Below, in pieces: positions 1,264 through 30,944 of a stretch of 32,000 nucleotides of DNA. Made by a program: the position numbers and the translations under genes. Origin of the DNA: Candidatus Bathyarchaeota archaeon (GTDB lineage Archaea > Thermoproteota > Bathyarchaeia > 40CM-2-53-6); NCBI GenBank assembly GCA_963833125.1, contig CAWHWX010000028.1, forward strand, positions 97,985 to 129,984. The letters run 5' to 3'. Below the pieces are notes generated by a model. That model did no database searches, was not told where the DNA came from, and worked only from the letters and a program-made list of their open reading frames with translations. Numbering within the stretch: position 1 is the first letter of the stretch; each line of letters opens with the position of its first letter.

Positions 1264-1905
1264 ATGGACCACAGTTTCCTAAACGACTGGGATACAGAGT
1301 CAAGAGAGCCAGTAATCTCGAAAGTTGGAGCTCATTTCCACCATAAGGTATCAACGAAAGAACAAGTTTCTTCGGCGCTCTACAGGCTCAAAACTCAACA
1401 AAACAAACTGGAATCAGCAGCTGTTAGAATGCAGCAACATGACAAGGAAATTTTCAATAAATGTGTCAGTTCCCAACTCACCCATGATACTGCACGAGCA
1501 GCAATGTACGCGAACGAGTGCGCAGAAGTGCGAAAGATGGCGAAAGTGACTTTACAATGCCAAATGGCGCTTGAACAGGTATCACTTCGACTAGAAACGA
1601 TCGAAGAGTTCGGCGACGTCGCTCGAATGATGCTTCCCGTAGCCAACGTGGTGCACTCGATCAAGAACCAGATCTCAGGCGTAATGCCTGAAGTTGGCTT
1701 TGAACTTGGCCAAATTGGCGAAGTACTCAGCGGCGTAGTAGACGACACAGGTGAAGTCACAGGATCTGCATATGATACCGCCGCTCCCACCGAGGAAGCC
1801 AACAGAATTCTAGGAGAGGCCAGCACGATCGCTGACCAACACATCAGAGACAAATTCCCGGAACTGCCAACCCAGAGAATAGGTGAACACGGAATCTCAC
1901 AATAG
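1264..1905 (+). CDS. cdvB: CdvB-like ESCRT-III (Snf7 family) protein, paralogue 1
   Basis: Helical protein with the block AAMYANECAEVRKMAKV...LEQVSLRLETIEEFGD, shared with the two other paralogues in this window. The acidic C-terminus ends in FPELP. The ORF opens at a GTG at 1249; the first ATG is at 1264. Confidence 0.8.
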   Translation: MDHSFLNDWDTESREPVISKVGAHFHHKVSTKEQVSSALYRLKTQQNKLESAAVRMQQHDKEIFNKCVSSQLTHDTARAAMYANECAEVRKMAKVTLQCQMALEQVSLRLETIEEFGDVARMMLPVANVVHSIKNQISGVMPEVGFELGQIGEVLSGVVDDTGEVTGSAYDTAAPTEEANRILGEASTIADQHIRDKFPELPTQRIGEHGISQ

Positions 1906-1917
1906 GATAGGGTTAGG

Positions 1918-2601
1918 ATGAGTATCACTGTAGAAGAAATCGGCAAGTACCTCGGGCAATCGGTTCAAGATATGATGGGCCGACCTACAGGAAAACTGGT
2001 CGGTCTTACAGCCGACGTCAAGAATGACGTCCAATCTATTCAAATAGCCCGAACTGAGGGCGACGTCACTGAACACGCAATCAACTTCGTTAGGATCATT
2101 GACGGACATCCTATTCTCCTACAAGCGTGGCGCATCGAGGCCGAGGATCTGAAGAAAGAACATGACATCATAAAACGCAGACGACAAGCAATTGACTTAC
2201 TACTCAAGGACGGAGACATCGACCAATCCGAGTACAATCAGTTACGCAGTGGCTACGAGGACATCCACAAAGACATCATTACAAAACGTGACAGCCTTGT
2301 AGAGACATTGACAAACACTGAAACGAAACTGGACCAACAGATCAAGGACCTAGAAACCGCATTAACCAATAACAAAATGCTCTACACAGTTGCCGAAATC
2401 GACGCAAGCACATATCAGACAGTAACGGAATCCGTACGAGCAGGCCTAGAAATTTCAAGGAAAGAAAGAAAGGACCTAGATAACACCCGCGAATCTCTGC
2501 ACGACATAGGCTCGCTAGAAACTCCACAGATACCGAATCAATCCTCGGCCCCGAATTACATCCCTGACGTCGTCGTAATCAAAATGCGCGAATCAGCTTA
2601 A
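1918..2601 (+). CDS. cdvA: CdvA cell-division protein (PRC-barrel N-domain, coiled coil, C-terminal beta-strand tail)
   Basis: 227 aa. N-terminal GKYLGQSV..GRPTGKLVGL...HPILLQAWR is PRC-barrel-like, followed by a long heptad-rich helical region and the C-terminal tail IPDVVVIKM. It sits between cdvB genes and upstream of vps4. Confidence 0.8.
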   Translation: MSITVEEIGKYLGQSVQDMMGRPTGKLVGLTADVKNDVQSIQIARTEGDVTEHAINFVRIIDGHPILLQAWRIEAEDLKKEHDIIKRRRQAIDLLLKDGDIDQSEYNQLRSGYEDIHKDIITKRDSLVETLTNTETKLDQQIKDLETALTNNKMLYTVAEIDASTYQTVTESVRAGLEISRKERKDLDNTRESLHDIGSLETPQIPNQSSAPNYIPDVVVIKMRESA

Positions 2602-2612
2602 GCAACGGGGAT

Positions 2613-3407
2613 GTGACTGCCTTCTCTATCTTCAGGAGAGTTGAAGACAAACTGCACCCTGTGCCCTTGAAGGAGCGAATCGTACACGCTTCATTCAGGC
2701 TTCACGCACAGCTAGAGAAACTAGACCACATGTACGCTAAACTCCACCAACGAGATACTGACCTTTTTCAACGGTGCGTTGGGGCCCAGGCTTCAAACGA
2801 CCCCGGACACGCGAAAATTTACGCTAACGAGTGTGCGGAAATCCGGAAGATTGCAAAAGTGGTACTCTCAAGCCAACTTGCGCTTGAGAGAGTAATCCTC
2901 CGACTGGAAACGGTTGGGGAATTCAGTGAGGTCATGGTGGAAATAAGTCCACTCATGTCCATTGTGAAGGAAACAAAATCGAAGATCTCTGGCATAGTTC
3001 CGCAGGTTGCGACAGAGCTCGACGAAGTGAACAACCTGCTCGGAGATTTGACGGATGAGGCTGGCGACGTCTCGACTAATAATTTCACGATAGAGACTAA
3101 CGATGACGAAGCGAGGAAGGTCCTTGAGGAAACCGGCCTAATTGCGGAGCAAAAAGTTCGTGACCATTTCCCCGACCTATCAGCAATCGAATCCAGTCCA
3201 CCAGCAAAGATGGATGCCATTCCGGAATTCGCAACAACGATTCCCGATATGGAGGCTGGAATCGAAGATAGAGTCTACGATTATGCACGGAAACACAACG
3301 GTGAGCTGAGCATACATTCTTGTGCACAAGATATTGGTAAATCTCCTGAAGAAGTGAAAACCGCTATTCAAAGGCTGAGGGACACAGGGAAGGTCGCACT
3401 CGAATAG
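2613..3407 (+). CDS. cdvB: CdvB ESCRT-III protein with C-terminal winged-helix domain
   Basis: 264 aa with a GTG start. The Snf7-like core contains KIYANECAEIRKIAKV...LERVILRLETVGEF. A roughly 55-aa C-terminal extension (RVYDYARKHNGELSIHSCAQDIGKSPEEVKTAIQRLRDTGKV) reads as a winged helix. Only this paralogue has it. Confidence 0.85.
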   Translation: MTAFSIFRRVEDKLHPVPLKERIVHASFRLHAQLEKLDHMYAKLHQRDTDLFQRCVGAQASNDPGHAKIYANECAEIRKIAKVVLSSQLALERVILRLETVGEFSEVMVEISPLMSIVKETKSKISGIVPQVATELDEVNNLLGDLTDEAGDVSTNNFTIETNDDEARKVLEETGLIAEQKVRDHFPDLSAIESSPPAKMDAIPEFATTIPDMEAGIEDRVYDYARKHNGELSIHSCAQDIGKSPEEVKTAIQRLRDTGKVALE

Positions 3408-3427
3408 CCGAGCGAAGTGATCGTCTC

Positions 3428-4570
3428 ATGCAGGTCTCGGCATCTCAAGAACTCGAACTAATGGCAGCTAAGTTTGCGAACGAAGCTGTACAGTTTGATA
3501 GGCAAGGCGTGCGGTCTAATGCCATCTCACGTTACGAACGCACTACTGAGATTCTGCTGAAACTATGCAGCCTGTATCCCGAGGCCCCCCAAAATAAGCT
3601 CTACATGCAACAAGTTGAGAACTGCAAGCGTAGAGTGAAGGAGCTCAAAAACGGAGACGTTCCGCTAGACGAGAGAGATAGCTCCCAAGCTAAGATTCAA
3701 CCAAAGCTAGAACAATTGATACTTACTGAGAAGCCGGATGTAAAGTGGAGCGAAATAGCGAACTTACACGACGCTAAGAAAGCAATAGAAGAATCAATAG
3801 TCTTCCCGTTACGACGCGCCGACCTCTTTCCACTCGGTTGGCCAAGAGGAATTCTGTTCTTCGGACCGCCGGGTTGTGGCAAGACACTACTAGCCGCAGC
3901 GATAGCTACCGAGATTGACGCTGTATTCTACAGTGTAGACGCCCCGGCAATAATGTCAAAGTGGTTGGGTGAATCTGAAAAGAACGTGTCGGGTCTTTTC
4001 GCGTCCGCTCATAGAAGCGCCGCTGATGGTCACCCAGTAATCATATTCATTGACGAAGTAGATTCGCTCGTGGGAATCAGAGGCGACGAGGTAGGGGGCG
4101 AAGTTAGAACCCGAAACCAGTTCCTTCAGGAAATGGATAGCATCCTCGACAAAAAGAACCCGAGCCATGTCTACATTATAGGTGCAACAAACAAGCCCTG
4201 GGCTCTAGACGATCCGTTCATTCGCAGATTCCAGAAACGAATCTACGTTCCTTTGCCAGGTCCAGAAGCGAGGCGGGAAATGTTCGACATTTACGCTAAG
4301 AACCTGAAGCTTGCCAGAGATGTTGATCGGGAACTTGTCGTCGAGAAGACGAACGGGTATTCAGGGAGCGATTTGCGTGATATATTCCAGGGAGCTCAGA
4401 CTCGGGTCGTCCGAGAGTTTTTCGAAAATGATGCTCTCGGAACTAAAGGTCAGGCCCGTCACATAACGATGGACGACTTTAGGGAGATCCTAATGAGACG
4501 CAAGCCAAGTGTCTCACCGCAAATGCTCGGTTTGTATGATAAGTGGTTTGAAACTTACAAAGCGCTTTGA
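3428..4570 (+). CDS. cdvC: Vps4/CdvC AAA+ ATPase with N-terminal MIT domain
   Basis: 380 aa. Walker A GPPGCGKT, Walker B IIFIDEVD and second region of homology ATNKPWALDDPFIRRF are present. The N-terminal helical domain is MIT-like and the C-terminus ends in WFETYK, which is Vps4-like. Confidence 0.95.
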   Translation: MQVSASQELELMAAKFANEAVQFDRQGVRSNAISRYERTTEILLKLCSLYPEAPQNKLYMQQVENCKRRVKELKNGDVPLDERDSSQAKIQPKLEQLILTEKPDVKWSEIANLHDAKKAIEESIVFPLRRADLFPLGWPRGILFFGPPGCGKTLLAAAIATEIDAVFYSVDAPAIMSKWLGESEKNVSGLFASAHRSAADGHPVIIFIDEVDSLVGIRGDEVGGEVRTRNQFLQEMDSILDKKNPSHVYIIGATNKPWALDDPFIRRFQKRIYVPLPGPEARREMFDIYAKNLKLARDVDRELVVEKTNGYSGSDLRDIFQGAQTRVVREFFENDALGTKGQARHITMDDFREILMRRKPSVSPQMLGLYDKWFETYKAL

Positions 4571-4584
4571 GGAGAAAATAAAGA

Positions 4585-5082
4585 ATGTTAGATGCAATAG
4601 ACTACAAGATCTTGGCGGAACTGGTCGACAATTCGAAGTCGTCGTTCGCTGAGATTGGCCGCAAGTTGAGCCTTCACCCAAACGTAGTAGCCTACAGAGT
4701 GAACAAGCTCGAAAGAAGTGGCGTAATCAAGGATTACACCGCTGGCTTAGATCTTGAGAAACTAGGAGTCGCCGAACAGATTCTCGTAGGGGCAAGCTTT
4801 CCACGCGAGGCTGGCCGCGACGACATAATCGACAAGATCGCAGCCATCCCGCAAACAGTCAAAGTTGTGAGCTCTCTCGGTGAACCTGAAAGCCTTGTTT
4901 TCCTAGTCGGAAAGAACAAGACCGAGATAGAGAAATTGATGACCAAACTCAGGTCCTTGGACATTAAAATTCAGTACACGGGTTCGATAATACGAACCTT
5001 TGAGGAAGGCAGACTGGGGAACTTCCTCAAAATTCTCGCTCGTGAACACGAGACAGCGGAAATTCAGAACAGAACATTATGA
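4585..5082 (+). CDS. Lrp/AsnC family transcriptional regulator
   Basis: 165 aa. LDAIDYKILAELVDNSKSSFAEIGRKLSLHPNVVAYRVNKLERSGVI is an HTH_AsnC-type motif, followed by a RAM/ACT-like C-domain. It starts 14 nt after the vps4 stop and ends 16 nt before the next cdvB. Confidence 0.9.
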   Translation: MLDAIDYKILAELVDNSKSSFAEIGRKLSLHPNVVAYRVNKLERSGVIKDYTAGLDLEKLGVAEQILVGASFPREAGRDDIIDKIAAIPQTVKVVSSLGEPESLVFLVGKNKTEIEKLMTKLRSLDIKIQYTGSIIRTFEEGRLGNFLKILAREHETAEIQNRTL

Positions 5083-5098
5083 AGGGGTGATAGATAGA

Positions 5099-5704
5099 AT
5101 GTTCAAAGAAAGAACACCATTATCCAAGAAGATTAGGGAGGCTATACGACCCACACCAATGAAGAGACGCATAAGCGAATGCCTCTTCAAACTGAAGATG
5201 CAAGAACGAAAACTTGAGAGAACCTCATACCACATGCAACAACACGACCAAGCACTCTACGGCAAGTGCGTCCTTGCAGTCCAGGGCAAGAACACCGAAC
5301 TCGCATCCATGTACGCCAACGAATGCGCAGAGCTAAGGAAGATGGCTAAGGTAGTATTACACAGCGAACTCGCATTAGAGCAAGTAACTCTTAGACTGGA
5401 AACCGTGAACGAATTCGGCCAGGTCGCATACACCATGCTACCAGTCGTCGGTGTCGTGAGGACTTTGAAAACACAATTGGAAGGAGTACTACCTGAAGTT
5501 TCAATGGAACTATCACAGGTAAACGAAACATTAGAAGGGCTAACAGTGGAAGTCGGCGAGGCAACTGAAAACACCTTCGACATGTCGGCTTCAAGTGGAG
5601 AATCGCAGAAAATACTTCAGGAAGCAAATTTCGTTGCCGAGCAAAAGATGAAGGAGAGATTCCCGGAGCTCCCGCCAATACCTACCAGCGAAGCACGCGT
5701 CTAA
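5099..5704 (+). CDS. cdvB: CdvB-like ESCRT-III (Snf7 family) protein, paralogue 3
   Basis: The track ORF 5000..5704 overlaps lrp, so the ATG at 5099 (MFKERTPLSKK) is the sensible start. The core contains SMYANECAELRKMAKV...LEQVTLRLETVNEFG and the C-terminus is FPELPPIP. Confidence 0.8.
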   Translation: MFKERTPLSKKIREAIRPTPMKRRISECLFKLKMQERKLERTSYHMQQHDQALYGKCVLAVQGKNTELASMYANECAELRKMAKVVLHSELALEQVTLRLETVNEFGQVAYTMLPVVGVVRTLKTQLEGVLPEVSMELSQVNETLEGLTVEVGEATENTFDMSASSGESQKILQEANFVAEQKMKERFPELPPIPTSEARV

Positions 5705-16493: not shown

Positions 16494-17519
16494 TTGCCAA
16501 AACGAGTCGCTCTAATCCGTGGAGATGGCACAGGACCTGAGCTCACCGAAGCAACCCTGAAAGTTCTCAAGGCTGTCGATACGGACGTCGAATTCATTGA
16601 ATGTGATGCGGGGGCCGAGTGGTGGCAAGCCCACGGCGGATCCGTTCTGATTCCCGATTCGAGTTGGAAGATAATTGAATCAGCTGATGCGTGCCTGAAA
16701 GGGCCCACTACTACGCCCGCAGGCCCGAAAACGCCACGCAGCGTTGCTGTGAGCATACGTCAAAGGATGAATCTCTACGCGAACATTCGACCGGTTAAGA
16801 CATTCGAAGGAACCAAACGGCCGCTCGGCGACGTGGAGTTGGTGTGCGTTCGTGAAGCCACCGAGGGGCTATACTCAGGTATTGAGCATAGGCTGTCAAA
16901 TGACGTCGCGATAGCCTTTCGCAAAATTACACGAGCCCCAAGCGAGAAGCTGTGCCGAACCGCCTTTGAAGAAGCCAAACGCCGCGGCTGGAAACGCACC
17001 TACGTAATCACCAAACAGAACATCCTGAAAGAAACCGACGGGCTATTCATGGAGGCAGCTAACGGCGCACACGCAAACTACCCCGAGATAAGCATGGACG
17101 AATATTTCATTGATAATTTCGCCCAACAACTCATCAAGAACCCTCAACGCTTCAATCAAAGCGTGATCTTCGGCACTAACCTCTTCATGGACATTATCTC
17201 CGAGGAAGTCTCCGCCCTAGTCGCCAGCATAGGCTGCATCTACTCCGCGAACTTTGGCGATGAGTACGCAATGTTCGAACCTGCTCACGGCAGCGCCCCT
17301 CAGTACAAAGGCAAGAACAAAGTGAACCCAACAGCCACCGTCCTAGCCGGAGCCTGGATGCTGGATTACTTAGGGGAGAAGAAGAAATCTGAAGTCATCT
17401 TCAAAGCAACCCGGGAAGTGATTGCGGAAGGAAAGAAGGTTACATATGACCTAGGCGGGAGCGCAGGCCTTTCAGAAATGTCGGACGCCATTGCTGACCG
17501 AGCTCGAAAGAGCCTGTGA
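16494..17519 (+). CDS. Isocitrate/isopropylmalate dehydrogenase family protein (beta-decarboxylating dehydrogenase)
   Basis: 341 aa with KRVALIRGDGTGPE at the N-terminus, plus SIRQRMNLYANIRP and EPAHGSAPQYKGKNKVNPTA. The conserved N-terminus leaves only the TTG at 16494 as a start. Confidence 0.85.
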   Translation: MPKRVALIRGDGTGPELTEATLKVLKAVDTDVEFIECDAGAEWWQAHGGSVLIPDSSWKIIESADACLKGPTTTPAGPKTPRSVAVSIRQRMNLYANIRPVKTFEGTKRPLGDVELVCVREATEGLYSGIEHRLSNDVAIAFRKITRAPSEKLCRTAFEEAKRRGWKRTYVITKQNILKETDGLFMEAANGAHANYPEISMDEYFIDNFAQQLIKNPQRFNQSVIFGTNLFMDIISEEVSALVASIGCIYSANFGDEYAMFEPAHGSAPQYKGKNKVNPTATVLAGAWMLDYLGEKKKSEVIFKATREVIAEGKKVTYDLGGSAGLSEMSDAIADRARKSL

Positions 17520-17707
17520 AATTTCCATCCGAACGTACGGACCCAACTAGAGTAAGTTCACGCCGGACCCTCTTCTCAGCCCTAATGGTCACTATCCATT
17601 CGAGAGGGCGATTAGATTTCAATAATTGTAGCTACAATGTTGATTGGATGGATGGAGTGTACGCAAATACCTATCTGTTGGTGTAATTCATAATAGAATT
17701 GATCCAT

Positions 17708-17905
17708 ATGGAATCCCCCGAAACCGAAGAAAAAGAATTCTCAGACGAAGAGCTTGAAGAAATAATTGACATGAAAGCCCCTACGGCGTTGATTAAGGAA
17801 TTCGAGGCGATGGTGAAAGAGAGCCCCCTCCTCGTCACGGGGTTGGTATTTGCATTTGGAATTCTCATAGGGGTCTCGCTCTCATCCGGTCGTAGAAGGC
17901 GCTGA
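17708..17905 (+). CDS. Small tail-anchored membrane protein (DUF883/ElaB-YqjD-like architecture)
   Basis: An acidic N-terminal part is followed by VKESPLLVTGLVFAFGILIGVSLSSGRRRR. It is a paralogue of the next ORF. The ATG is at 17708 and the ORF opens at a TTG at 17699. Confidence 0.5.
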   Translation: MESPETEEKEFSDEELEEIIDMKAPTALIKEFEAMVKESPLLVTGLVFAFGILIGVSLSSGRRRR

Positions 17906-17954
17906 AAGCTATTCTTTTATTGATTGTACGTTGAGTTAACGCGTGGTGTAGATT

Positions 17955-18170
17955 TTGCCGAAAAAGAAAGACCCACCTAGCGAGATCCCACGGTACATGA
18001 AGAGCCTTAGGAAAGATGTGGACTACCGACTGACAGATTTGAAGTCGGAGTTGGATGATGTCCAGAAGAGGGCGGCTAAGACGATGAAGGAACGGCCTAT
18101 GCTCGCCCTTGGAATCGCGTTCATGGTTGGAATGGCATTCGGCATCGCCCTAGCAAAGTCAGGGGACTAG
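17955..18170 (+). CDS. Small tail-anchored membrane protein (DUF883/ElaB-YqjD-like architecture)
   Basis: 71 aa. A charged helical N-part is followed by MKERPMLALGIAFMVGMAFGIALAKSGD, which resembles the ElaB C-terminus EKPWQGIGVGAAVGLVLGLLLARR recalled from E. coli. Confidence 0.5.
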   Translation: MPKKKDPPSEIPRYMKSLRKDVDYRLTDLKSELDDVQKRAAKTMKERPMLALGIAFMVGMAFGIALAKSGD

Positions 18171-18179
18171 GCGTTCGAA

Positions 18180-18479
18180 TTGCCCGAACCCGAGAAGCCC
18201 GCTCTGTCCGAAAAACTCGTGAAGTTAATCCTACGCGAAGCCCTCGGCGGCGTCGCTAAACCTGTGGAACATTTTGTCAAACGTCTGGTCCGCTCTGTTG
18301 CCTTGATTCTGGGCGGCATTGTGATAGCTGTGATTGGAATCGCATTCGTTGCAGTAGGGGCGGTGAGGTGGCTCAGCTCCCTAATGCCAACTTGGTTAGC
18401 GTGGGCGCTTGTGGGAATAATCCTCCTCCTCATCGGCGTAACCGTTACTTCAACGGCTTACGCTAGTGGACGGAGCTAA
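18180..18479 (+). CDS. Small two-TM hairpin membrane protein (YqjE/DUF1469 Holin-X-like architecture)
   Basis: 99 aa with a TTG start, an amphipathic N-terminus and two long hydrophobic helices (ALILGGIVIAVIGIAFVAVGAV and WLAWALVGIILLLIGVTV). It starts 9 nt after the previous stop. Confidence 0.45.
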   Translation: MPEPEKPALSEKLVKLILREALGGVAKPVEHFVKRLVRSVALILGGIVIAVIGIAFVAVGAVRWLSSLMPTWLAWALVGIILLLIGVTVTSTAYASGRS

Positions 18480-18530
18480 AGGCTCCCGACGATTCCAGCA
18501 TTCGACTTATCGAATCAGAATGTCGCTCAA

Positions 18531-18824
18531 TTACGGTGCGGCATTCTCAGTTGTTAGGAATCGAATAATCTTTCCCGCGCCAAGTTTCTCCGTAACTATC
18601 TTCTGTTCCTCCGCGTTCAGGGGTTTGTATTTGAGATGAGTTTCAGTGACGCCGGCGTAGCGGCCTGCGACTAGGTAGGCGCTTGCGTTCTTCTCTTTGT
18701 AGATGGTTATGGGTTTGTGAACGGCGGCTGGGTCCGTACCGGCATAAAGATAGCTAATTGCGTCGTCGTACTTCGCCTTGTCTTCAATCTTAAACAGGAC
18801 CACATTTGTCTCGTCGGGTTTCAT
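18531..18824 (-). CDS. Hypothetical protein
   Basis: 97-aa ORF of normal composition. I recognise no family. Confidence 0.4.
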   Translation of the reverse strand: MKPDETNVVLFKIEDKAKYDDAISYLYAGTDPAAVHKPITIYKEKNASAYLVAGRYAGVTETHLKYKPLNAEEQKIVTEKLGAGKIIRFLTTENAAP

Positions 18825-18950
18825 GCGAGCTTGACTTGTTTACAGGGGTAAAACTGTTACGGAGTCATCCAAGGCGCTCAGGCAAAGCGCGTCACTTTGC
18901 AAGAGGTTTTATGTCCGGTTCACCCATGCTTTGCGTAGGATCGTTAGAAG

Positions 18951-19445
18951 TTGATTAAGGCAACAGTACAGAAAGCGCTAAACGACCAAACAAGAAAGGA
19001 ATTCTACTCCCATTATCTCTACCTCTCAATGGCAGCGCATTTCGAATCAATCAACCTGCGAGGGTTCGCCCATTGGATGCGTGTTCAAGCGAAGGAGGAA
19101 ATGGAACACGCGATGAAATTCTTCGAATACATAATCGAAAGACAAGGGAAAGTGGTCTTAGAGGCAATCGAGGCACCCGCTGCGAAGTGGAGGACGCCTA
19201 AGGACATCCTCGGGGATGCCTACAATCATGAAAGAAAGGTCACCGAATCCATTCACAAGATAGTTGACCTTGCTGCGTTAGAGAAAGATTATGCCACCAT
19301 CATATTCCTCCAGTGGTTCGTGACAGAGCAAGTGGAAGAAGAAGCAAGCGCGAACGAAATTCTTCAAAAACTCCAACTCATCGGAACCGAAACCAGCGCA
19401 CTCTTCGTTCTGGACGGAGAACTAGGTAAAAGAGCTTCCAAGTAA
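18951..19445 (+). CDS. Ferritin (non-haem, Ftn-like)
   Basis: 164 aa with LNDQTRKEFYSHYLYLSMAAHF...AKEEMEHAMKFFEYIIERQG...YNHERKVTESI...LQWFVTEQVEEE, which carries the ferroxidase-centre ligand pattern. A TTG start is required by the conserved N-terminus. Confidence 0.9.
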   Translation: MIKATVQKALNDQTRKEFYSHYLYLSMAAHFESINLRGFAHWMRVQAKEEMEHAMKFFEYIIERQGKVVLEAIEAPAAKWRTPKDILGDAYNHERKVTESIHKIVDLAALEKDYATIIFLQWFVTEQVEEEASANEILQKLQLIGTETSALFVLDGELGKRASK

Positions 19446-20306: not shown

Positions 20307-20731
20307 CCGCCGACTCCCCTTGACTCGTGGAATTGATTTTCTTTTCTGGTTCCATAAGTCGCTTGCGTTGGCTGAAGAACTCGATGGCGTGTCTGCCCAT
20401 CGCACTGCCCCCGCTTAGTCTCCGACTTCCTTTAACGGAAAATTTGGAGCGGGTCAGTTTGTTGCGAACGCTCCGCACTACTACACGCCTGAAGGCGCTG
20501 GGTACCTTAGCTAATGCGAATGTACGATCCTAGCGGTACATTCACGTTTTTGGCGTTGCTTGACCATGTGTCTGGTCGCCGGCGACCAACTGTATGGTCA
20601 GAAACCAACTCTTGCGACTTTCTTAGCGGTTTTCAGGTTGCTTGGCCACTCGCTGAAGGGTTTGGATCAAGGCGTTCTCTGCCCTCAAATATGTGATCAG
20701 ACCGAACCACCAAAGAATATAACAACACTAG

Positions 20732-20783
20732 TTGGAGCCGGGGATGGGAATCATATTACTAGTTCGGTTCCGTAACAATATAA
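20732..20783. repeat. Left copy of a roughly 52-bp direct repeat bracketing the 9.7-kb island
   Basis: ttggag-ccgg-gatgggaatcatattactagttcggttcc-gta-acaatataa. The 29-nt core (20743-20771) is identical to 30457-30485, and the flanking positions are mostly shared. Confidence 0.85.
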
Positions 20784-20987
20784 GGCAATACGATTATTGA
20801 ATTTCCAATGGCAAAGGAGATCAGCCTGAACTTTGGAGAAAGTTTCTCGTCCCCAAAGCTCTAGTCTCGCCTGGTCTAGTACATAGCATTTAGGCAGCCA
20901 GTAGTCTTCCAAGATACGTACCGATGCCATCTGCCAATTGCAGTGATTTGATCTCAGTTCCATCCGCTGTACCTTTTTGTGTGTGTG

Positions 20988-22038
20988 TCAATCCGAAGTT
21001 TCAATCCACTTCTTCTGTTGCGCAGCATCGTACGCTGTATCCATGAGGCGGTTCACGACGTAGCCGTCTCGGAAGCTTTCTCGCAGTGTTTGGCCTTTAG
21101 CAATGCATTCGACAAAATGTTGCAATTCGTACATGTAGCCTCCGGTTTCAAACTCACGCCAAGTTGGAAACATCCAACCCCTACCCACATCAGCCTTCTC
21201 GACGATGTAACCAGAACGACCCTCTGGTGCAGCCGTGAAGAGCCTAATGCCAGTTTCACGGGTGGCGTCAATGAAGATTGCACCGTCACTCCCGTAAACT
21301 TCCACTCGAACATCAAATCCACCTTTTGCCGACCAACTGTTTTCACACTGTCCAAGGGACCCGTCTTCGAATTTCAAGAGCACAAGGCTATTGTCCTCGC
21401 CCTTTATTTTATGAACGAGAGTTGCTGTCCAAGCTGCAACCTCCGTCGGTTTCTTCTTGTTGACGAGATATCGGACGGCTTCTATAGTGTGGCAACCCAT
21501 GTCCGATAGCACTCCGCCACCTGCGAGATTGGGATCCCAGAACCAATTGCTGTGTGGTCCAGAATGTGCTTCCCTTGCTCTAATCCATGTGAGCTTACCG
21601 ATGGCTCCGCTGCTGATGAATTCGAAAGCGACGAGTTATCTGTGGAATGAAAACCTGATTCTCCGCGTAGCAATTGAGAACTCCATGTTTTTCCACAGCG
21701 TCAAGCGCCTTTTTCGCTTCGGCCCCATTGCGGGCGAGAGGCTTCTCGCATATAATGTGCTTATGATTTTCAGCTGCCGTTATGATCGTTTGCAGATGGA
21801 AATTGTTCGGTATTCCGATGTCTACAACATCGACATCCGGATCTCTGCACATCTTCTCTATGGCATCATCACCGTGGTAGACTTTACTTATGTTCCATCG
21901 TTTCGCGAACTCCACGGTGTCTTCTATCCCAGCAACAGCAACCACGTTTGCAAGTTTGATTTCCGAGTAGGCAGGCATGTGAAAAGTGTTCTGTACGAAA
22001 CCTGTTCCCACAATTCCAACATTCACCTTCTGTGACAT
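20988..22038 (-). pseudogene. Gfo/Idh/MocA family oxidoreductase, one frameshift
   Basis: The N-part (in 21595..22074) reads MSQKVNVGIVGTGFV...ICEKPLA. The C-part frame, read back from 20988..21512, reaches LVAFEFISSGAIGKLTWIRAREAHSGPHSNWFWDPNLAGGGVLSDMGCH. The frames meet near 21636-21640. Confidence 0.8.
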
Positions 22039-22148
22039 AGACTTGACTGACCTCTTGTTATTCAGAGATGGCAAGTCCGTTTAAAAGATTCGGCTCCGTA
22101 AGGATGAAAACTAGCCAAGCACGATCTGTCAAATCCTCGGGTGATGCT

Positions 22149-23092
22149 CTAACTCCACCAGTCCATCACGAATACATCGGATCTGTTGTACGCCGGTTCA
22201 TTTGGTTTGTGCATCGTAACGTAAAGAGTTGATGTGAAGAAGCCTGTCTCTATCATGGTCTTATAGGCTTCGTGGCGTTCCATATTCATTCCAGCTGTAA
22301 TATTCACCAATCCTTTACTCACAGCGAAGGCCTCGCAGGTTTTCAGGAGTCTTTCGAAATCTGTGTGTTGATTAGATGATGGCTTAACTGCCCCAAATTT
22401 CACATAACAGTTTCCACTCCCTGCTTCTGTATACGCGGTCCGCAGTGACAGATAGCAAAACCAGCAAGTTCGGGGCCGTCCCAAAGCAGAATTGTATCGC
22501 CTAAAGCCTGATGGTAAACGGATCGTATCTCCGTTGAAAGATCCAAACCGCCGTAAATCGAATTGCTCACACGAAACGTTTGCTCAATACATTCTCGCTT
22601 TTCTTCTTTCCCAAGAGCCGAGAAAGTTGAGATCGCGAGTAAGTCTTCGCTTGGCTTAACGGGTTTTGTCATAATTGCAGTTAGGCATCTTGGCCAGAAA
22701 CCATACTTCTGATAAAGATGAATGTGCTTCGGGCTCTCAGGTTGAGTGACAAGACCAGCTTGCGATATGTGCCACTGTTCAAACAGATCCTCCGCTCTTT
22801 CAACCAGACGGGAAGCAACACCTTTACCCCATAGGTGGGGGTGAACAGCCATTCTACCGACAAAACTCACACTACCCCATCTCGTCACAACAACCGTTCC
22901 ACGAACGGTTCCTTCGGCTTCCGTGACGAGGATAACGCTAGTGCTACCTCTCCATCGGGAAGCTATCATGTCTCTGTCGCCAAAGGTTTCAAGAGGGTTA
23001 GTGAGCCCATATTGAGTCCCGAAGGTTAGTCGAAGTAGGCGATCCGCTTCGTCCAGCTCTTCTTCTCTGACTGGTCGAACGAGAATATCCAT
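22149..23092 (-). pseudogene. Two-domain GNAT acetyltransferase-like protein, one frameshift
   Basis: The N-part ORF 22400..23092 contains RMAVHPHLWGKGVASRLVE (acetyl-CoA site-like). The C-part ORF 22149..22484 contains TAYTEAGSGNCYVKFGAV.... The frames switch near 22425-22440. Confidence 0.7.
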
Positions 23093-23241
23093 GACACTCT
23101 TTCTATCTGAAGTTCATAAAATCCTTAACGCAAGAGGGCGGAAGTGTTGTGGTGTGAATGCACTGGGACGATAACCTGAGCCCCCCTCTTTGCCTAGTTA
23201 ATCTTCAGGTACTGTTCTGTCTTAGAAGTAGGCGTCCATTG

Positions 23242-24272
23242 TCACCGCTCGCCCCGTTTGATAGAATCCAGCGCTCCGAACATCATTGCCAAGCTTCTAA
23301 TGTTGTCTTGGGCACTGGTCTCCGGTTCCTTATCTTCGACAATGGATCGTGCAAACTCATGTAATGAGTAAGATCTGTCTTCTAGTGGCATGGGTATCAG
23401 TTCTGGTTCGAGGGTGGAAGCTCTCTCGGTCATTCCCCGCGTGTATACGCTCTTGAATGTGCGGGTCGGTTCTTGGAGTGTGACGTGAAGTCCGGTTTCG
23501 TTCCAGCATATTTCTCCTTCCGAGCCTTCGATGCGCCAATCACCATTCCACGTTGTTTCCCATCCTCGTGAAACCCAGCTGCCAAAGTAATTCACTCGAA
23601 TATCGTTTTTCATTTCAACCGAGACTTCAACTGTAGGGTTTCCATCAAACCAACTCCATTTCGGCCTCCAGCTCTTCGCGTAGATGCTAACGGGATCTAC
23701 TCCGAGCAGATACCTCATGAGATCGAAATGGTGAATCACCATCTCAGTGATAATTGGTTCGGGTAGTTTGAGGTAGTATATTCCCGTGAAAGGTGGTGCC
23801 TTGTGGAAGTTGACCGTAGCGTACCCCGCTTCACCCACAAACTCATCCTGCACAAGTTTTCTTATTGTTTGCTGGCGAACTCCTATACCTATAATTCTGG
23901 CTTACCATTAACTTCAACTTCGTCTTCTCTGCTGCCCGTCTCATTTCCCTCGCAGTTTTCCATCGTATCCGCCAATGGTTTTTCAATTAGGACATGCATG
24001 CCAGCATTCAAAGCAGCAATTGCGACTTCCGAATGGTAGTTTGCAGGTACAACTCCTAAGACCGCATCGGCGTCAACCTCTTTCAGTACACGACCAAGAT
24101 CCGTGTAACACTTTGAACTCGGAATTCCATTCTTAGCGGCGGTTCTCTGCAAATTGGCCTTGGATACATCAACGTAGGCAACAACTTCGAAATCTTCGGA
24201 TTGTCGAGCTATTGATGCCCAACTCTCACCCCAGCCACCAACTCCAACCTGAATAAGATTCAGCTTAGTCAT
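23242..24272 (-). pseudogene. Gfo/Idh/MocA family oxidoreductase, two frameshifts
   Basis: The N-part reads MTKLNLIQVGVGGWG...LIEKPLADTMENC. A second frame gives REMRRAAEKTKLKLMVSQNYRYRS. A third frame gives VRQQTIRKLVQDEFVGEAGYATVNF... (23242..23853). Confidence 0.8.
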
Positions 24273-24347
24273 GGAACAACTCGCATCCGAACGAATGGCG
24301 ATTCGTTCGTGACCTCAAATCTCGTGAGGAGTTTTGCTCAAAAGTTT

Positions 24348-25161
24348 TCAGTTAAGTAATTTCAGTAGGTACTCTTTGGTCCGCACTGCCGAGGTATCGC
24401 CTTCGCCTTGTTCTAGTTCGGCTGAAAGGTATCCTGAGTAATTGATCTCTCGCAAAGCCTTGACGATTGACTTGAAATCTATGTTCCCCTCTCCCGGTAC
24501 CAAATGTGCATCTCTAGTTGAGTCATTGTCGTGTATGTGTACGTGTATTATCTTGTCCCTCATCTTCAGCACCGATTTCGGTATGTCTTCCTTCACTACG
24601 TGGAGATGCCCTATGTCCAGTAGGAGTTGTAGACCGGGACTGTTGACCTCTCGCAGCATCTTGTCAGCGAGGTCTGAGGTGGAGATCAAGTTGCCTGGTT
24701 CTGGTTCCAGACCGATTATTCTCTTGTGGCTCTTCGCATAGTCCCACGCATTCTTCCAGTTCAGCCTTGAGCCAGTTCCATTGATCCCTTTCGTTTGTGC
24801 CTTCAATCATTGGGGTTCCTGTTACAATTTCTACCAGAGGTGCTTCGAGGTCTACGGCTAGGTCGACACATTCTTCCACGTGCCGAACTGTCGCTGATCT
24901 CACTCTCGGATTTGGATGGGTGAAGTGCCACTGGGGTGTGCCATTGAATGAGGTAATCGCAGCGACTTTCAATCCAAGCGACTTGGCCTCTGATAGTATC
25001 TTCTTTTTTTGCGAATTGTCATAATCTTCTGGCAACATGTGCGGACGGTTGGCAACTATTTCGATTGCGTCATAACCCAATTTCGCAGTTCTGTCTATGG
25101 CGATTTCAATTGGGTAACGAATGTAAGCGAACGAACTTAAGCAGAGTTTCAAGTCCCTCAT
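24348..25161 (-). pseudogene. Xylose-isomerase-like TIM-barrel protein (sugar phosphate isomerase/epimerase family), one frameshift
   Basis: The N-part ORF is 24664..25161 (LGYDAIEIVANRPH...) and the C-part ORF is 24348..24806 (IIGLEPEPGN...LLLDIGHLHV...HVHIHDN). The ORFs overlap in different frames and the switch is near 24745-24775. Confidence 0.8.
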
Positions 25162-25169
25162 CCTGGCTG

Positions 25170-26202
25170 CTACGGAAGAAGTACGGTCTTAAGGGTTTTC
25201 TTCGAATCGAATAGTTGAAACGCTTCAGACGCTTTAGCTAGCGGAAATCGATGTGTGACGGTTTCAGCCAACCGAATTTTCTTTCGGTTAACTAATCGAA
25301 TCATCTCATCGAAATCGGCAATGTTGAAGTACCACGAACCTCTGATGGTCAAGTCCTTCGTGATGACTTGTTCTACTGGCTTAATTTCTGTTCTGTGCCC
25401 CCATCCGACGAACGCTACTTTTCCATGCGGGGCAACACATTCTAACGCTTCACTTTCCGCAATCGCACTACCCGAACAGTCGATTGACTTACTGACAGCC
25501 TCGTCACCAAGCATTGAGTTGATCGACTCAACTACATTGACATCTCCCAAGTTCTGCAATGTATAGTCACATCCTAGCTTCTTGACGTGTTGTAGTCGCT
25601 CTTTCACTGGATCTATGCCGATTACCGCGGCGCCGAGGGATTTACAAACCATTGCCTCACAAACTCCAATTGGACCCATGCCGAAAATCGCAACATTGTC
25701 GAAAGGACCGACTTCCAGTTTTTTTGCAGCGGAGTAGGTTGTTCCCAGGAGATCGGTAGTAAGGCTCCCGTCAATGAAATCCATCCAAGCAGGTATCTTC
25801 AAGCAGTTTCTCGCCGGGGTTAACAGAAGCTCAGCATCGGCGCCATTCATGTCAAACCCAAAACATTTCGCCTCCTTACAGAACATCCATTCACCAGCAC
25901 GACATCCGTTGCAATGATTGCAACTTACGAATGTGTAAACTGCCACTCGATCGCCTACGATTACCGAATCAACGCCTGGCCCCACTTTCTCAACTAACCC
26001 GCATCCTTGGTGGCCCGGTATAACAGAACCATGGCCCTTTGTTCCAACCCCAGCATGCTGTCTCCCGTGGTACGGGTCTAGGTCCGCGGCGCATAGTGCC
26101 GCTGCTTTTATTCTAACCACAATCCTCCCCATAAGAGGGAGTAGGATCAGGAAAATCGATATAACGGACTTGTTCCGGGCCCGTGAATGAAATGGCCTTC
26201 GT
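25170..26202 (-). pseudogene. Zn-dependent medium-chain dehydrogenase (sorbitol/threonine dehydrogenase-like), frameshift and lost start
   Basis: The called ORF (25170..26132) starts inside the domain at IVVRIKAAALCAADL. The missing N-terminus KAISFTGPEQVRYIDFPDPTPSYGE is read in another frame upstream. The switch is at the G-run near 26123-26130, and ACG sits where the ATG before KAISF is expected (26200-26202). GHQGCG, the CNHCNGCRAGEWMFC structural-Zn lobe and GMGPIG are all present. Confidence 0.8.
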
Positions 26203-26232
26203 GTAGTTTTCCTCTTCGTTGAATTCGGCAGC

Positions 26233-27824
26233 CTATTCTGGTGGGATTGACATATACAGCAAGGAGAGGTCGATTCCCTCTCTGGCCCTATAGTACTTTG
26301 CCACCCCGTAAATAACTAGGGGTATGGCGAAACTGGCAAAGATAATCGCATACGATCCCAGGCTAGTTGGTCCGATAGCTGGAGTTACTGATGCGGCGTA
26401 GATTAGGAAGACTAGAAATGCAGCCGATAAGGCGGATAGGATTGAAACTACGGGGACCTTTGCGATGTTTATCTTCCAAATGCTATTTTCATACAAATCC
26501 TTCCTTCGATATGGGTAGACAATTCCAGCGATCGCAACTAGCAGTAGGTCTGCGGCAAACCAAATCGTGCCGTTGAGGAAGAATGAGAGATATGGAGTAT
26601 AGGCTGCAAAATAAAGCGCGATAAGAGACCCGATTCCTGCCACTATCGCCACGTAAATCGGTGAGGCTGTACGGGCTGATACTCTTGCAAATATTTCGGG
26701 CATAACTCTGTCAAACGCCCAAGCGAACATTGACCGGCTAGCTGTGAGAAGAAATGCGAGCATATTGAGTACCATAGCTAATGCCATATAGACTGAGATA
26801 ATCGATAACAAGACCACATTATTAGTGAGCAAACCAGCGTAGAAGTTAATCCAAGGAGGAGCGCTCAGCGGATAATGGGACGTTCAAAGAACAAATAGCC
26901 TGAAGCGCTGAGAAAGTCATAACCCGCAGTTTTCATCAACAGTTCCCCTCCGATCCAGTCCATTATGCCGCAGAACAGGAATCCTCCCATCAATGCCAGT
27001 GGGATTGTCTTCCGCGCGCCGATCTCACCTCGCCAGCCACATACACCGGATATGTTGGCCCCTGTCCTAAGAATACGAAGGCCGGCGCAGACGCTAACAT
27101 GGTCGCGAATAATGCGGGGCGTACCGATGTCCAACCATTTTGCGAGGCGGTTTGAATAATCCCAGAATATGTGGCAACTCCGTCTCGGTTTCTGGTTAAA
27201 GTTGGCGATGAAAGTCGCATTACTATTTAGCGCAAGCAGACCGAACACGACGACTACTCCTATCATACTTACAAAGAACAGAACCCGGTTCACTTGCGAA
27301 ATGATCTTTATGCGTAGAGCCAACACAGCGGTCATGAAGAGAACCACGACAACACCTATCGCAAATGCAGTATTCACATCCGTAAATTGAACTGCAAGGC
27401 TAGAAATGGCCGGATTTTGCAATGAAAATCCCATTGCTGCAAATCCTGGAGCAAGCATGAGAGTTGAAAGATAATAGGAGTCTAAGCCTATCGCAAAAAA
27501 GCACTCAGCGTTATTGAGAAGTTCATTATGAAACCATAACCTGGACTTATGGTCCTGCCCAGGAAGACATAGTCCCCCGCCCAGATCGAGGCATAGCCGT
27601 CGCGAAGTAAACATATACCGCCGCAATTAGCAGTCCAGGTATTAATGCTGCAAGGAATGTAAAAGCTGGATCTGCACGGGGTATAGATACCCAAAGAATC
27701 CATACCCTGCGGCACCACCAAATGGAATATCCGAAATCCCCACAGCGATTATGAAAGCGTCTAGCGCTGTCAGATCCCTTACAAGACCTGTTGCTTCCCG
27801 GACAAAGACCTTGGGCTTAGACAT
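26233..27824 (-). pseudogene. APC-superfamily amino acid/polyamine permease, at least five frameshifts
   Basis: The pieces 27642..27824, 27488..27721, 26865..27626 and 26233..26832 are in different frames. Joining frames by hand restores ...ADPAFTFLAALIPGLLIAAVYVYFATAMPRSG / GDYVFLGRTISPGYGFIMNFSITLSAF / FAIGLDSYYL.... One switch is at the run gggcggggg near 27568. Confidence 0.75.
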
Positions 27825-28082
27825 TCTTTCACAGTGAAAGAATTTCCAGCAACCTGTATTTATGTTATTGCCTTCTTCATCAAGTCATCTTCTCTCCCTT
27901 GATTATAGTTGTGTTTTTCAGTCGTGCGACCTGAAATTGTTCCTAATTTGGAAATTTGAAAAATAATACTAATCTTGACATATGATGCGTCGTGTGACCG
28001 TATGTTGTCGAGGAAGATTTGAAAAATAAATCTTCTTCACGCCATACAATCGAAAGTCCTTATTATGTAGTAACTCCCGTGT

Positions 28083-29184
28083 GTGATTGCAGTACGACCG
28101 AAATTGAGCAAGATCCGGGTCGGTCTTATCGGGCTGGGTATGATTTCCAAGAACCATTTAAGTGCTTACCAGAAGATAGGTGAAATCGCTGAGATTGTTG
28201 CCGTTGCCGACGTAAGAAAAGAATTGGTGCAGCGAACTGCAAAAGAAGTAGCTGCAGAGAGTTACTATGATTATCGGGAATTGCTTCAAGACGACAAGGT
28301 TGACGCTGTCGATATTATGCTCCCACACAACCTGCATCTTCAGGCAGCAGTCGACGCTGCGGCGGCAGGGAAGGACATATTTATCGAGAAACCACTTGCC
28401 AGAACTGCAGCCGAAGCAACCAAAATCGTCGAAGCAACGGACCGTGCTGGCGTAAGACTGATGATCGGAAACAATCTGCTCTTTCATCCGGGTGTCCAAA
28501 AAGCACGTGAGCTAATCGAAAAGAAATATCTGGGCAAAATTGTCCTCGAAAGCATGGTCATTAGGGTGGTTCCTTTACAATGTTGGTATATCCAAGTATC
28601 GAAAGTCTGTCGAGCAAACGGGGGGTGGTAGCCTAATTGACACGGGAACTCATTTCATCTATTTGCTGCGAAACCTTGTGGGTGACGTGGAATCTGTCGC
28701 TTGCTGCACAGGCAACCTGCTAAATGATCTTCACAAGAGTGTCGACCACGTTGACTTCGTACCTGAAGGAGAAGATACAGCTGTTCTTATTTTCAGATTT
28801 AGGAACTCGGCGCTTGGAGAACTCACAGTGAGTTATTCCACTGCTGGTTAGAAGGATGGGAAATGTTTTGGCCTTATGGGTGGGATCAGCGACTTCAATT
28901 ATACGGATCGGAAGATACCCTCTCACTAGATCTTCCAAACCTCACTCTCTCTGTCTCCTCTGAGAAGGACCTACAAGGTGATGTTAAGGGGAGGATTTCA
29001 ATTCCCGTGGCGGGTGACTATGGTGAAACCTTCGATGGTGAGATCAAACATTTCGTCGAAGGAAGTACTTCATAAAACGGATTTTATGAAAGGCGTTCGA
29101 GGGCAGGACGCAGTCGAAGATCTAAGAGTGATCGAAGCAGCCTACAAGTCTTCCAAACTTGGAAGCATGACACAAATCAACTGA
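28083..29184 (+). pseudogene. Gfo/Idh/MocA family oxidoreductase, at least three frameshifts
   Basis: The N-part is 28083..28631 (IRVGLIGLGMISKNH...FIEKPLA). The gene then continues through 28540..28851 (GGGSLIDTGTHFIYLLR), 28863..29075 and 28978..29184 (AVEDLRVIEAAYKSS), each in a shifted frame. Confidence 0.8.
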
Positions 29185-29289
29185 ACTCAATTCATATTGA
29201 TTAAGAGCATAATGTGAAACGTGCATCTTGAAGATGTCGTTGAAGCTTAAATTAAAGCAAGGGTCTCCGATCTCGAGGAAGCTTCGGAC

Positions 29290-30197
29290 TTGGGTCAATT
29301 CTTCGTGGGTCTAAACAACACATGGGCTGTGAAGAGATTCGCTGAACCTGAGGTTTGGGCGGAAATTGCAGCGACAAAAATGGACGTCGATCTCATACAG
29401 TTTTCATTCGATCTACTCGACCCAATGATTGGCGAAGACTGTCCTAAACGAAATGATACCAAGAACGCTAGATTCTTGCACGAAGTACGGAATAAAACTG
29501 CAAAGTTGTTTTACAGGCGTTATCGGATACACCAACAATCTTCTGTTACATCCCTCCTCGAAAATGAGAAAACACGCATTTGACTGGTACTCAAGCGCCG
29601 TCGGCATCAGCGGGAGGCTCCATGTGGAAACTGTAGGAGGCCATATGGGAGCGCTAACATTGAAGGATTTCAACGATACACGGCGGCGGGAGTCTCTGCT
29701 TTCGGAGCAAGTGGAGCATGTCACATCTTTGTCTCGATTATGTAAGGAGGCAGGATTGGAGACGCTATTATGGGAACACATGCCTGTATCCAGAGAACCA
29801 CCATCGACAATTGATGAGGCACGAAACCTACTACAACGAGTCAACAGAAACTCATCTGTCCCTGTCAAGTTATGTATCGATGTGGGTCATGCGTGCAATC
29901 CGAATGTGAAGGACCCTCGTGACAGAGACCCGTACACGTGGCTAAGCGAATTAGGTTCAGAATCTCCGTGCGTTCATCTTCAACAGACAGACGGAAAGGG
30001 AGATAGACACTGGCCTTTCACGGATGAATTCAACAAGCTAGGAGTAATTGACGGAAAGAGGATCATTTCATCGCTTGAGGAGAGGCGCTGGCAGGACGTA
30101 TCTTTATCTCGAAGCAATTCCAGCATTTGAACAAGACGATAATCAAGTAATCGAAGATATGACTAAGAGCATACAGTACTGGAAAGAATACGTGTAA
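29290..30197 (+). pseudogene. Xylose-isomerase-like TIM-barrel protein, at least two frameshifts
   Basis: The gene runs from 29290..29583 to 29429..30130 (ETLLWEHMP...KLCIDVGHA...VHLQQTDG). A third frame then gives GAGRTYLYLEAIPAFEQDDNQVIEDMTKSIQYWKEYV, with the stop at 30195-30197. Confidence 0.75.
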
Positions 30198-30445
30198 TTT
30201 GTATGCAATCGCACCACTACTCTCAAATTTGCTGCCCCAGTCTTCAAGTCAAGCTTTGGGTTACACTTGATATGTAGTTACGAGGCGTTTTTGCATAAAC
30301 CCCGGAAGTGCCCATTTCGACGGCACTCTGAACGCAGTTATTGTTTCTCTTGACGGAAAACTGCGGAACTATATGTTCGTGAACGGATAGAAACGTCGTG
30401 AAATTTTTAGATATTTGTCAGGTCGCAACCTGGTGTAGATAATAT

Positions 30446-30497
30446 TTGGAGTCCGAGATGGGAATCATATTACTAGTTCGGTTCCTTGACAATATAA
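30446..30497. repeat. Right copy of the roughly 52-bp direct repeat bracketing the 9.7-kb island
   Basis: ttggag-tccga-gatgggaatcatattactagttcggttcc-ttg-acaatataa. The 29-nt core (30457-30485) is identical to 20743-20771. Confidence 0.85.
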
Positions 30498-30944
30498 ATT
30501 GTCGAAGTAACACGGTTCTGTTAACAGAACCAGTAATACCCCAGGATTGGTTGATGCTTGCGTAGCTGAGGTCTACGTGCGCCGAGAGAGAACCCGGATG
30601 TGCAACTTCTTATTCGGATTGCTTTTTCGATGTCTCATTTAGTCCGGGATAGGTGACCCACAAGCCGCGAATAGAATTGTGAAAGAAGATCAATTGATTT
30701 AACCTCTACAAACTCGTCGGGACCATGCAGATTACCTCCTCGTTCGGAATGCAATCATCTTTTCGCCGCTAATGCTCTCGACAATCAATCCTGTTTCTGC
30801 ATCTTTGTCAAGCGTCTTTAGAAGTACAGGTTTAGCGTCTGGCAATTGATAACGTAAACTACTTTCCGTAAGCACAATTATGCTTTTTGCCTAAGCAAAA
30901 GCTCGATAAACAGGAGTTCACTTACCACGCTAGCGGTTTGAGAC

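Follow-up and report, generated by a model that had tools for sequence, protein, structure and literature searches.

When every gene of an island is broken while the genes around it read through cleanly, is the organism losing that island, or has the assembly failed to reproduce it? We took up this question in a 32,000-nt stretch of an assembly of a Candidatus Bathyarchaeota archaeon (GCA_963833125.1, contig CAWHWX010000028.1, positions 97,985 to 129,984; hereafter the window), where a 9.7-kb accessory island at 20729-30497 has a direct repeat at either end and eight genes between the repeats, all of them frameshifted. An earlier note on this DNA described the island as a module caught in the act of being lost, and offered low coverage or strain heterogeneity as the alternative. 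We find that the lesions are small indels only, with no nonsense codon and an excess of insertions, and that the same signature marks essential genes in related contigs. These observations make loss the less likely reading and favour low coverage or strain heterogeneity: the frameshifts are, in our judgement, probably consensus errors of a long-read (Nanopore, Flye-type) metagenome-assembled genome (MAG), confined to strain-variable, poorly covered segments.

Frameshifts in all eight island genes

Frame changes were mapped by a purpose-written, frameshift-aware dynamic-programming alignment of protein to DNA against the closest intact homologues, and the stability of each event was judged by repeating the alignment with two to six references per gene. 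The total came to 17, distributed as one each in the first of three Gfo/Idh/MocA dehydrogenases (Gfo1), a GNAT acetyltransferase, the first of two xylose-isomerase-like TIM barrels (TIM1) and a Zn-dependent medium-chain dehydrogenase, two each in Gfo2 and TIM2, three in Gfo3 and six in an APC-superfamily permease. This bears out the earlier note, which had counted at least 15 disruptions over all eight genes, and agrees with its gene-by-gene counts. In a map of the open reading frames (ORFs) of 20988-30197 each island gene is spread over at least two frames, and adjacent fragments hold complementary parts of single Pfam domains. Once repaired, all eight proteins match their references end to end with no in-frame stop codon.

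The event in Gfo1 (20988-22038, minus strand) is the only one resolved to the base: a T inserted between G and C at ~21630-21631 (CTCG[T]CGC), non-templated and duplicating no neighbouring base. Its references are an intact protein (P0094, 89% identity) and an intact metagenomic gene (L003:601-1650), to which it is 88.6% identical by blastn over 1154 nt including upstream sequence and 89.1% in the coding region; the dynamic-programming alignment covers 349 of 349 residues without a stop. Positions 1-115 of the GFO_IDH_MocA domain lie on 21595-22074 and positions 43-217 of the C-terminal domain on 20988-21512.

The remaining minus-strand genes show the same pattern against more distant references. 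The GNAT acetyltransferase (22149-23092; Pfam Acetyltransf_1, with a C-terminal extension) carries a +2 insertion at ~22431-22437 (TA/AT in CGT[AT]ACA), which is net +2 with six of six references, with 5-7 of 8 flanking positions identical (closest reference P0216, 47%). In Gfo2 (23242-24272), likewise split into Pfam halves, two +1 insertions at ~23954 and ~23872-23878 are both net +1 in five of five references (closest P0215, 65% identity). TIM1 (24348-25161) has one +1 insertion at ~24744 and carries AP_endonuc_2 positions 2-117 and 107-236 on two fragments (reference L004:1173-1991, 68% identity), and the Zn-dehydrogenase (25170-26202) has one at ~26124, net +1 in five of five references (closest P0002 and L004, 66%). 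Six frame changes, at ~27676, 27578, ~27492, ~27176, 27018 and ~26878, interrupt the permease (26233-27824; Pfam AA_permease_2), among them a +2 in GGG[CG]GGGG at 27578 (six of six references) and a +2 in a GC repeat at 27018 (five of six); at 36-40% identity to P0095-P0100 (P0095, 40%), the repaired protein matches over its full length without stops, and the gene was also traced by reading all three frames.

On the plus strand, Gfo3 (28083-29184) changes frame at ~28548, ~28847 and ~29067, with tblastn hits in frames 3, 1 and 3 (reference L002:5549-6610, 43% identity, no stops). TIM2 (29290-30197) changes frame at ~29428, where the event is +1 in five of five references, and again within ~30074-30107 (~30083); its alignments to P0260-P0265, references taken from a search of a representative library, contain no stops (closest P0260, 47%).

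The Zn-dehydrogenase also lacks a usable start codon. Positions 26200-26202 read ACG at the site of the TTG start of the homologue L004, so that the ATG changed to ACG of the earlier description is more accurately the lack of a start codon at the homologous position. No in-frame ATG, GTG or TTG was found back to the upstream TAG, which is the permease stop codon, and the 33 nt between that stop codon and the ACG (window 26200-26235) contain none of the three in any frame. The ACG may be a lesion of the substitution type, or initiation may be unusual here.

Frame changes need not be damage, and these could be real but tolerated or even functional, through programmed ribosomal frameshifting, transcriptional slippage or split subunits. 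Nothing specific points this way beyond a few sites at short runs (27578 in a G-run, ~27492 near a T6 run). The 17 sites fall in eight unrelated genes, share no common slippery motif and lie mostly off homopolymers, six of them are inside one membrane permease, and the resulting fragments cut through single Pfam domains. We know of no system that requires functional frameshifting of this extent, and consider this explanation extremely improbable.

Small indels without nonsense codons

The island's lesions consist of 17 frameshifts, at a density of one per 500 bp, with no nonsense codon and no large or multi-codon deletion; if a second repeat-bounded element at a tRNA-Arg gene, described below, is counted too, the frameshifts number 22 and nonsense codons are still absent. 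For the codons of the island, the chance that a random substitution yields a stop is 0.038, which gives a probability of seeing no stop of 0.14, 0.04 or 0.0015 at 3, 5 or 10 substitutions per indel, respectively. All nine events that are stable across two to six references are insertions, six of +1 (Gfo1, both in Gfo2, TIM1, the Zn-dehydrogenase and the first in TIM2, at ~29428) and three of +2 (GNAT and the permease sites 27578 and 27018), and among all events just one is deletion-like.

Genuine pseudogenisation would mean that the island has lost its selective value and that real small indels, together with the lost start codon, have accumulated in all eight genes. Every gene is indeed struck, and the number of events scales with gene length as neutral accumulation predicts: the 17 are spread over the eight genes as expected from a uniform Poisson process (chi-square p = 0.70). 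In prokaryotes, however, natural pseudogene decay is expected to be deletion-biased and slippage-driven, and genuine gene decay to bring deletions as well. The island shows no deletion bias and no deletion beyond a few bases, its nine robust events are all insertions, its one base-resolved insertion is non-templated, and nonsense codons are missing beside 17 frameshifts (or 22 with the other element). The repaired proteins are full length and conserved. Against its intact homologue (89% coding identity) Gfo1, the best-referenced gene, has a ratio of nonsynonymous to synonymous substitution rates (dN/dS) of 0.154, compared with 0.03-0.13 for core genes; the other island genes are saturated at synonymous sites.

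Decaying islands in Aliivibrio salmonicida resemble this one in that contiguous accessory catabolic and transport genes are all disrupted beside an intact core (PMC2627896). Decay there combines frameshifts with premature stops and insertion sequence (IS) insertions (PMC2627896), whereas the island studied here has frameshifts only, with an excess of insertions, full-length repaired products and a low dN/dS.

If the lesions are artefacts, they are not all of one familiar kind. Runs of four or more identical bases are found no further than 6 nt from five of the 17 sites, where the background would be 10% (p = 0.025), and with just these five near such runs an error model built on homopolymers only was rejected. 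Because few sites adjoin homopolymers, the lesions, if artefacts, would reflect low support and not systematic homopolymer miscalls.

Clean core genes and frameshifted related contigs

The contrast between the island and its surroundings is sharp. Ten core genes of the window, aligned to their orthologues in the sister contig L005, contain no frameshift except one at an A7 run (14499-14505, minus strand) at the 3' end of the gene for a GTPase with EF-Tu domain 2, where one base is missing and the final 12 codons are changed as a result. Adding one base to the run restores the C-terminus (NAKKTR...) and the stop codon found in L005 and in a second sister contig, L006. This base loss, the sole frame change found in core genes, is typical of the classic long-read homopolymer error. 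The contrast that the earlier note had drawn with about 20 intact genes outside two repeat-bounded regions is thus real, as far as ten aligned core genes go, with the qualification of the A7 run. Under a uniform rate, the probability that all 17 events would fall inside the island is about 3e-9.

Lesions of the island's kind recur in related contigs, in essential genes that cannot really be broken. The sister contigs L005 and L006 share their gene order and 98% sequence identity, and both have names in the Flye style. Over 13.6 kb of genes that L005 has intact, L006 (ERZ25039509 contig_24899) shows six frameshifts and no stops; they strike the essential ArgRS gene, a PMT gene and an ABC permease gene and are mostly single non-homopolymer insertions, and three of the six cluster in a variable PLD gene. 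A further contig from the same sample, L019 (ERZ25039509 contig_166153), which again has a Flye-style name, matches the window at 93% identity and carries about 80 indels over 9.3 kb, leaving the genes for ArgRS, Vps4 and pyruvate:ferredoxin oxidoreductase broken. The public assemblies of the lineage thus demonstrably hold indel artefacts of the island's kind, at densities both lower and much higher, and since such lesions in essential genes cannot be real, the same signature in the island favours an artefact there and counts against pseudogenisation.

This is what would be expected of long-read data. Indels are the dominant Nanopore error and become worse at low coverage (PMC8103633), and many frameshift "pseudogenes" are artefacts of low-coverage assembly (PMC11017572); one published workflow is Nanopore-only, with Flye and one round of Medaka (PMC12313526), and the sister contigs together with the NCBI/ENA provenance suggest that the window comes from such a long-read project. 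The island shares with spurious pseudogenes of Nanopore, Flye/Medaka assemblies the restriction to small indels, the full-length repaired genes and the absence of nonsense codons (PMC11017572, PMC8103633), and the density of such errors follows local support, with essential genes of L006 and L019 struck likewise. It differs in that most of its events lie off homopolymers and that its errors are confined to two accessory segments of an otherwise clean contig, for which a local cause is needed.

A second frameshifted element at tRNA-Arg

The other of these segments is an integrated element at 9201-12575, bounded by a tRNA-Arg(CCG) gene (12498-12575) and an exact 34-nt copy of the tRNA 5' end at 9201-9234. 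In the sister genomes L005 and L006 the tRNA directly follows ArgRS, which identifies the intervening segment as integrated. The two repeat-bounded regions named by the earlier note are thus both real, one delimited by a 55-nt repeat (the island) and the other by the 34-nt exact repeat (9201-9234 and 12498-12531). Inside the element, a 286-aa tyrosine recombinase (11591-12451, minus strand) is apparently intact. Reading through the cargo on both strands requires at least five frame changes in ~1.3 kb, at least four in a gene for a secreted protein (11464-10530, minus strand) and at least one in a truncated secreted protein gene (10194-10527, plus strand), a density similar to or above that of the island; these changes come from three-frame reading alone, as a reference search found no homologues.

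The same region contains a 127-nt inverted repeat (89%; window 10414-10540 and 13400-13526), with related stretches at 13286-13381 and 10536-10652. These stretches encode a C-terminal motif made of a Thr-rich linker, then (I/L)PEYP(Y/F/L)GL, then a hydrophobic helix ending in RR(R/K). Four proteins predicted to be secreted, paralogues encoded within the integrated element and beyond it, have the motif, which resembles an archaeal signal for C-terminal sorting or anchoring.

Consensus errors or real decay

Low coverage or strain heterogeneity is favoured by the combination of small indels only, no nonsense codons, an insertion excess and the same signature in essential genes elsewhere. On this account the 17 frameshifts would not be in the organism's DNA but would be left over from the assembly consensus, with errors concentrating in the two repeat-bounded segments where fewer reads, or reads from mixed strains, may have backed the consensus.

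Several observations weigh against this account. Both the technology with which the source contig was sequenced and the local drop in coverage are things that we infer, the latter because the lesions coincide with repeat-bounded, strain-variable segments. A majority-path assembler would normally drop a minority insertion, so that a drop in coverage would have to be accompanied by the retention of a path from a minority or from mixed strains. In the Zn-dehydrogenase it is base differences and not an indel that leave no start codon, which is easier to understand as real neutral drift. All three +2 events expand a dinucleotide or a short run, as real replication slippage also does, and several events sit at short G/C runs or dinucleotide repeats where it occurs. 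The other mobile element is degraded too while its integrase is intact, which under a uniform error rate has a probability of ~0.04-0.18 and is mildly unexpected, and the six differences between the 55-nt copies of the island repeat, which fit a non-recent insertion, count for real decay as well. The dN/dS of Gfo1 is compatible with very recent decay, which would barely shift the value. Finally, some archaea have been reported with frameshift-rich spontaneous mutation spectra, and the zero-nonsense argument is weaker for such spectra (a probability of 0.14 at three substitutions per indel).

No independent copy of the island contradicts the assembled sequence. Apart from P0094, the intact Gfo1 homologue with 89% protein identity, no near-identical island proteins were found, so that an independent check was confined to one of the 17 sites. 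Six island fragments, including one of the Zn-dehydrogenase, were looked up in a collection of 15 billion proteins, where all stood alone in their clusters except the C-terminal fragment of Gfo1, and a scan of a genome collection with the Zn-dehydrogenase returned a single relative, bacterial and 23% identical.

Taking both sides together, we regard genuine pseudogenisation of the island as possible but less likely than consensus error. That the frameshifts are real in both elements, two segments having then been inactivated almost solely by +1 and +2 insertions, with neither nonsense mutations nor deletions, through an unusual insertion-biased mutation process on the lineage's accessory DNA or a very recent joint relaxation of selection on the entire sugar or cyclitol oxidation module, seems to us unlikely.

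A repeat-bounded accessory segment

The left (20729-20783) and right (30443-30497) copies of the island repeat, both found by repeat search, are each 55 nt long, 89% identical (six of 55 positions differ) and spaced 9714 nt apart, with a perfect 29-nt core common to both, GATGGGAATCATATTACTAGTTCGGTTCC. The repeat matched no tRNA and no Rfam family. Between the copies lie two operons, as the earlier note had correctly described along with their gene families: a minus-strand operon of permease, Zn-dehydrogenase, TIM1, Gfo2, GNAT and Gfo1, and, divergent from it across an intergenic region at 27825-28082, a plus-strand operon of Gfo3 and TIM2. As a repeat-bounded accessory segment of a Bathyarchaeia-like genome, the island is real.

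Site-specifically integrated archaeal elements likewise have a direct repeat with a perfect core at either end, and the neighbouring element at 9201-12575, with its tRNA-Arg target and tyrosine recombinase, is the canonical form. The island differs from that form in that its repeat lies outside tRNA and Rfam families, that no integrase was found by ORFs and Pfam within or beside 20560-30875, nor any other mobility gene in or beside the island, and that no empty site was recovered. A split integrase of the SSV type at the island ends was rejected, the small ORFs over the repeats having no Pfam match.

L005 and L006 are syntenic with the window up to ferritin (window 19450) and then diverge; in the ~2 kb retrieved past ferritin they contain no island gene and no repeat copy. 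Neither metagenome nor viral contigs matched the 29-nt core, nor did L005, and twelve loci with the 124-aa gene of the right flank are not syntenic and have no further gene in common with the window. The description of the island as horizontally acquired has just two supports, the flanking repeat and the lack of similarity to island genes in the retrieved sister sequence; the G+C of the island matches that of the host.

A mis-join, or the chimeric insertion of a rarer organism's DNA with a consensus made poor by low abundance, would explain why the lesions end at the repeat boundaries, and the recurrence of Gfo1 with 95 nt upstream at 88.6% identity in a wholly different context (L003) fits it too. 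The island's G+C (0.45-0.49) and skew, however, run on smoothly into the flanks, and a 55-nt repeat with a 29-nt core is the signature of site-specific insertion, a long-read mis-join needing far longer repeats. We consider a mis-join very unlikely.

The match between window 20986-22138, which comprises Gfo1 and ~95 nt upstream, and L003:506-1652 is of interest in itself. The gene is intact on that metagenome contig, where its neighbours are different ones (an MFS transporter, a cyclase, an SDR, a second Gfo and RidA), and the similarity ends exactly at the stop codon. From this comparison Gfo1 and its promoter appear to be a gene-plus-promoter module found in different contexts.

Predicted function of the module

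The island encodes three Gfo/Idh/MocA dehydrogenases, two xylose-isomerase-like TIM barrels, a Zn-dehydrogenase, an APC permease and a GNAT acetyltransferase, a set that recalls the iol loci of Bacillus (IolG/IolE/IolI) and Thermotoga (IolG/IolM/IolN/IolO), in which Gfo/Idh/MocA proteins, a Zn-dehydrogenase and TIM barrels also stand together. We scored the repaired proteins against NCBIfam equivalog cut-offs, and none passes any of them. The three Gfo proteins reach 156, 110 and 133 bits for IolG (TIGR04380, cut-off 355), and the best scores for IolE (TIGR04379), IolM (NF041097) and IolO (NF041099) are 56, 137 and 107 bits against cut-offs of 290, 450 and 300. At the family level and over their full length, the Gfo proteins match the models for IolG, levoglucosan dehydrogenase and UDP-GlcNAc 3-dehydrogenase; the Zn-dehydrogenase matches threonine dehydrogenase and IolM, and TIM1 matches IolO and fructoselysine 3-epimerase, these two and IolE being the best TIM matches, while TIM2 has no NCBIfam match. 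IolO is given as 5-keto-L-gluconate epimerase in a passage of PMC12632266 that takes it from Rodionova et al. 2013.

IolB, IolC, IolD, IolJ and IolA are not among the eight genes between the repeats, the island's transporter is an APC permease, and a GNAT acetyltransferase is present; with all scores far below cut-off, the island does not qualify as a myo-inositol catabolism locus. The inositol or polyol label of the earlier note thus applies to the protein families only. In a bacterial locus (L002), a Zn-dehydrogenase, TIM, TIM and Gfo are arranged in the same way and adjoin sugar ABC transporters and a LacI regulator.

The module is best described, from its protein families, as a putative, intact-looking uptake-and-oxidation system for a sugar, a cyclitol or a polyol. 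The APC permease would import the substrate, the three Gfo/Idh/MocA enzymes and the Zn-dependent dehydrogenase would oxidise it, and the two TIM-barrel enzymes may act on keto intermediates as isomerase, epimerase or dehydratase; a GNAT acetyltransferase is encoded as well. Such a heterotrophic module, as it had been called, is not out of place in a Bathyarchaeia host whose window contains no identified ammonia-oxidation gene. We rejected a host that is an autotrophic ammonia oxidiser, the lineage being labelled Candidatus Bathyarchaeia, which is also the sole organism name borne by proteins with 90% identity or more to the core proteins, and no ammonia-oxidation genes having been identified in the window.

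Other genes of the window

Core genes were assigned from the window's ORFs, Pfam labels of orthologues and Pfam on the window, and comprise CdvB-like paralogues, CdvA, a Vps4-like ATPase, an Lrp regulator, a PMT-type glycosyltransferase, ArgRS, the EF-Tu-domain GTPase, an EamA transporter, isocitrate dehydrogenase and ferritin. A Cdv-type cell-division cluster occupies 1249-5704 with all its genes intact: three CdvB/ESCRT-III-like paralogues (1249-1905, 2613-3407 and 5000-5704), CdvA (1918-2601), a Vps4-like MIT-AAA ATPase (3428-4570) and an Lrp/AsnC regulator (4585-5082). Between the 99-aa/97-aa genes and ferritin, L005 (11047-18354) and L006 have an EamA transporter gene and a cluster made up of a PhoU-like gene, two ABC ATPase genes and an ABC permease gene, all of them missing at window 17519-18951. 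Synteny with these genomes stops directly after ferritin (window 19450), and the area is a hotspot of gene-content variation.

Implications

On current evidence this is an ordinary accessory island whose pseudogenes are probably spurious. Gene calls on L006 and L019, and pseudogene counts drawn from them, are unreliable. If the lesions of the island are artefacts as well, they would carry a warning that long-read MAGs may be clean in their core and at the same time error-dense in strain-variable islands, which are where claims on metabolic gain and loss get made. Should the lesions be real, they would show an uncultured archaeon from soil losing a module for the use of a carbohydrate or cyclitol, with an atypical, insertion-only mutation spectrum. 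If they are artefacts, the island would be an ordinary, intact accessory catabolic module of this archaeon, and its pseudogenes would not be evidence of gene loss.

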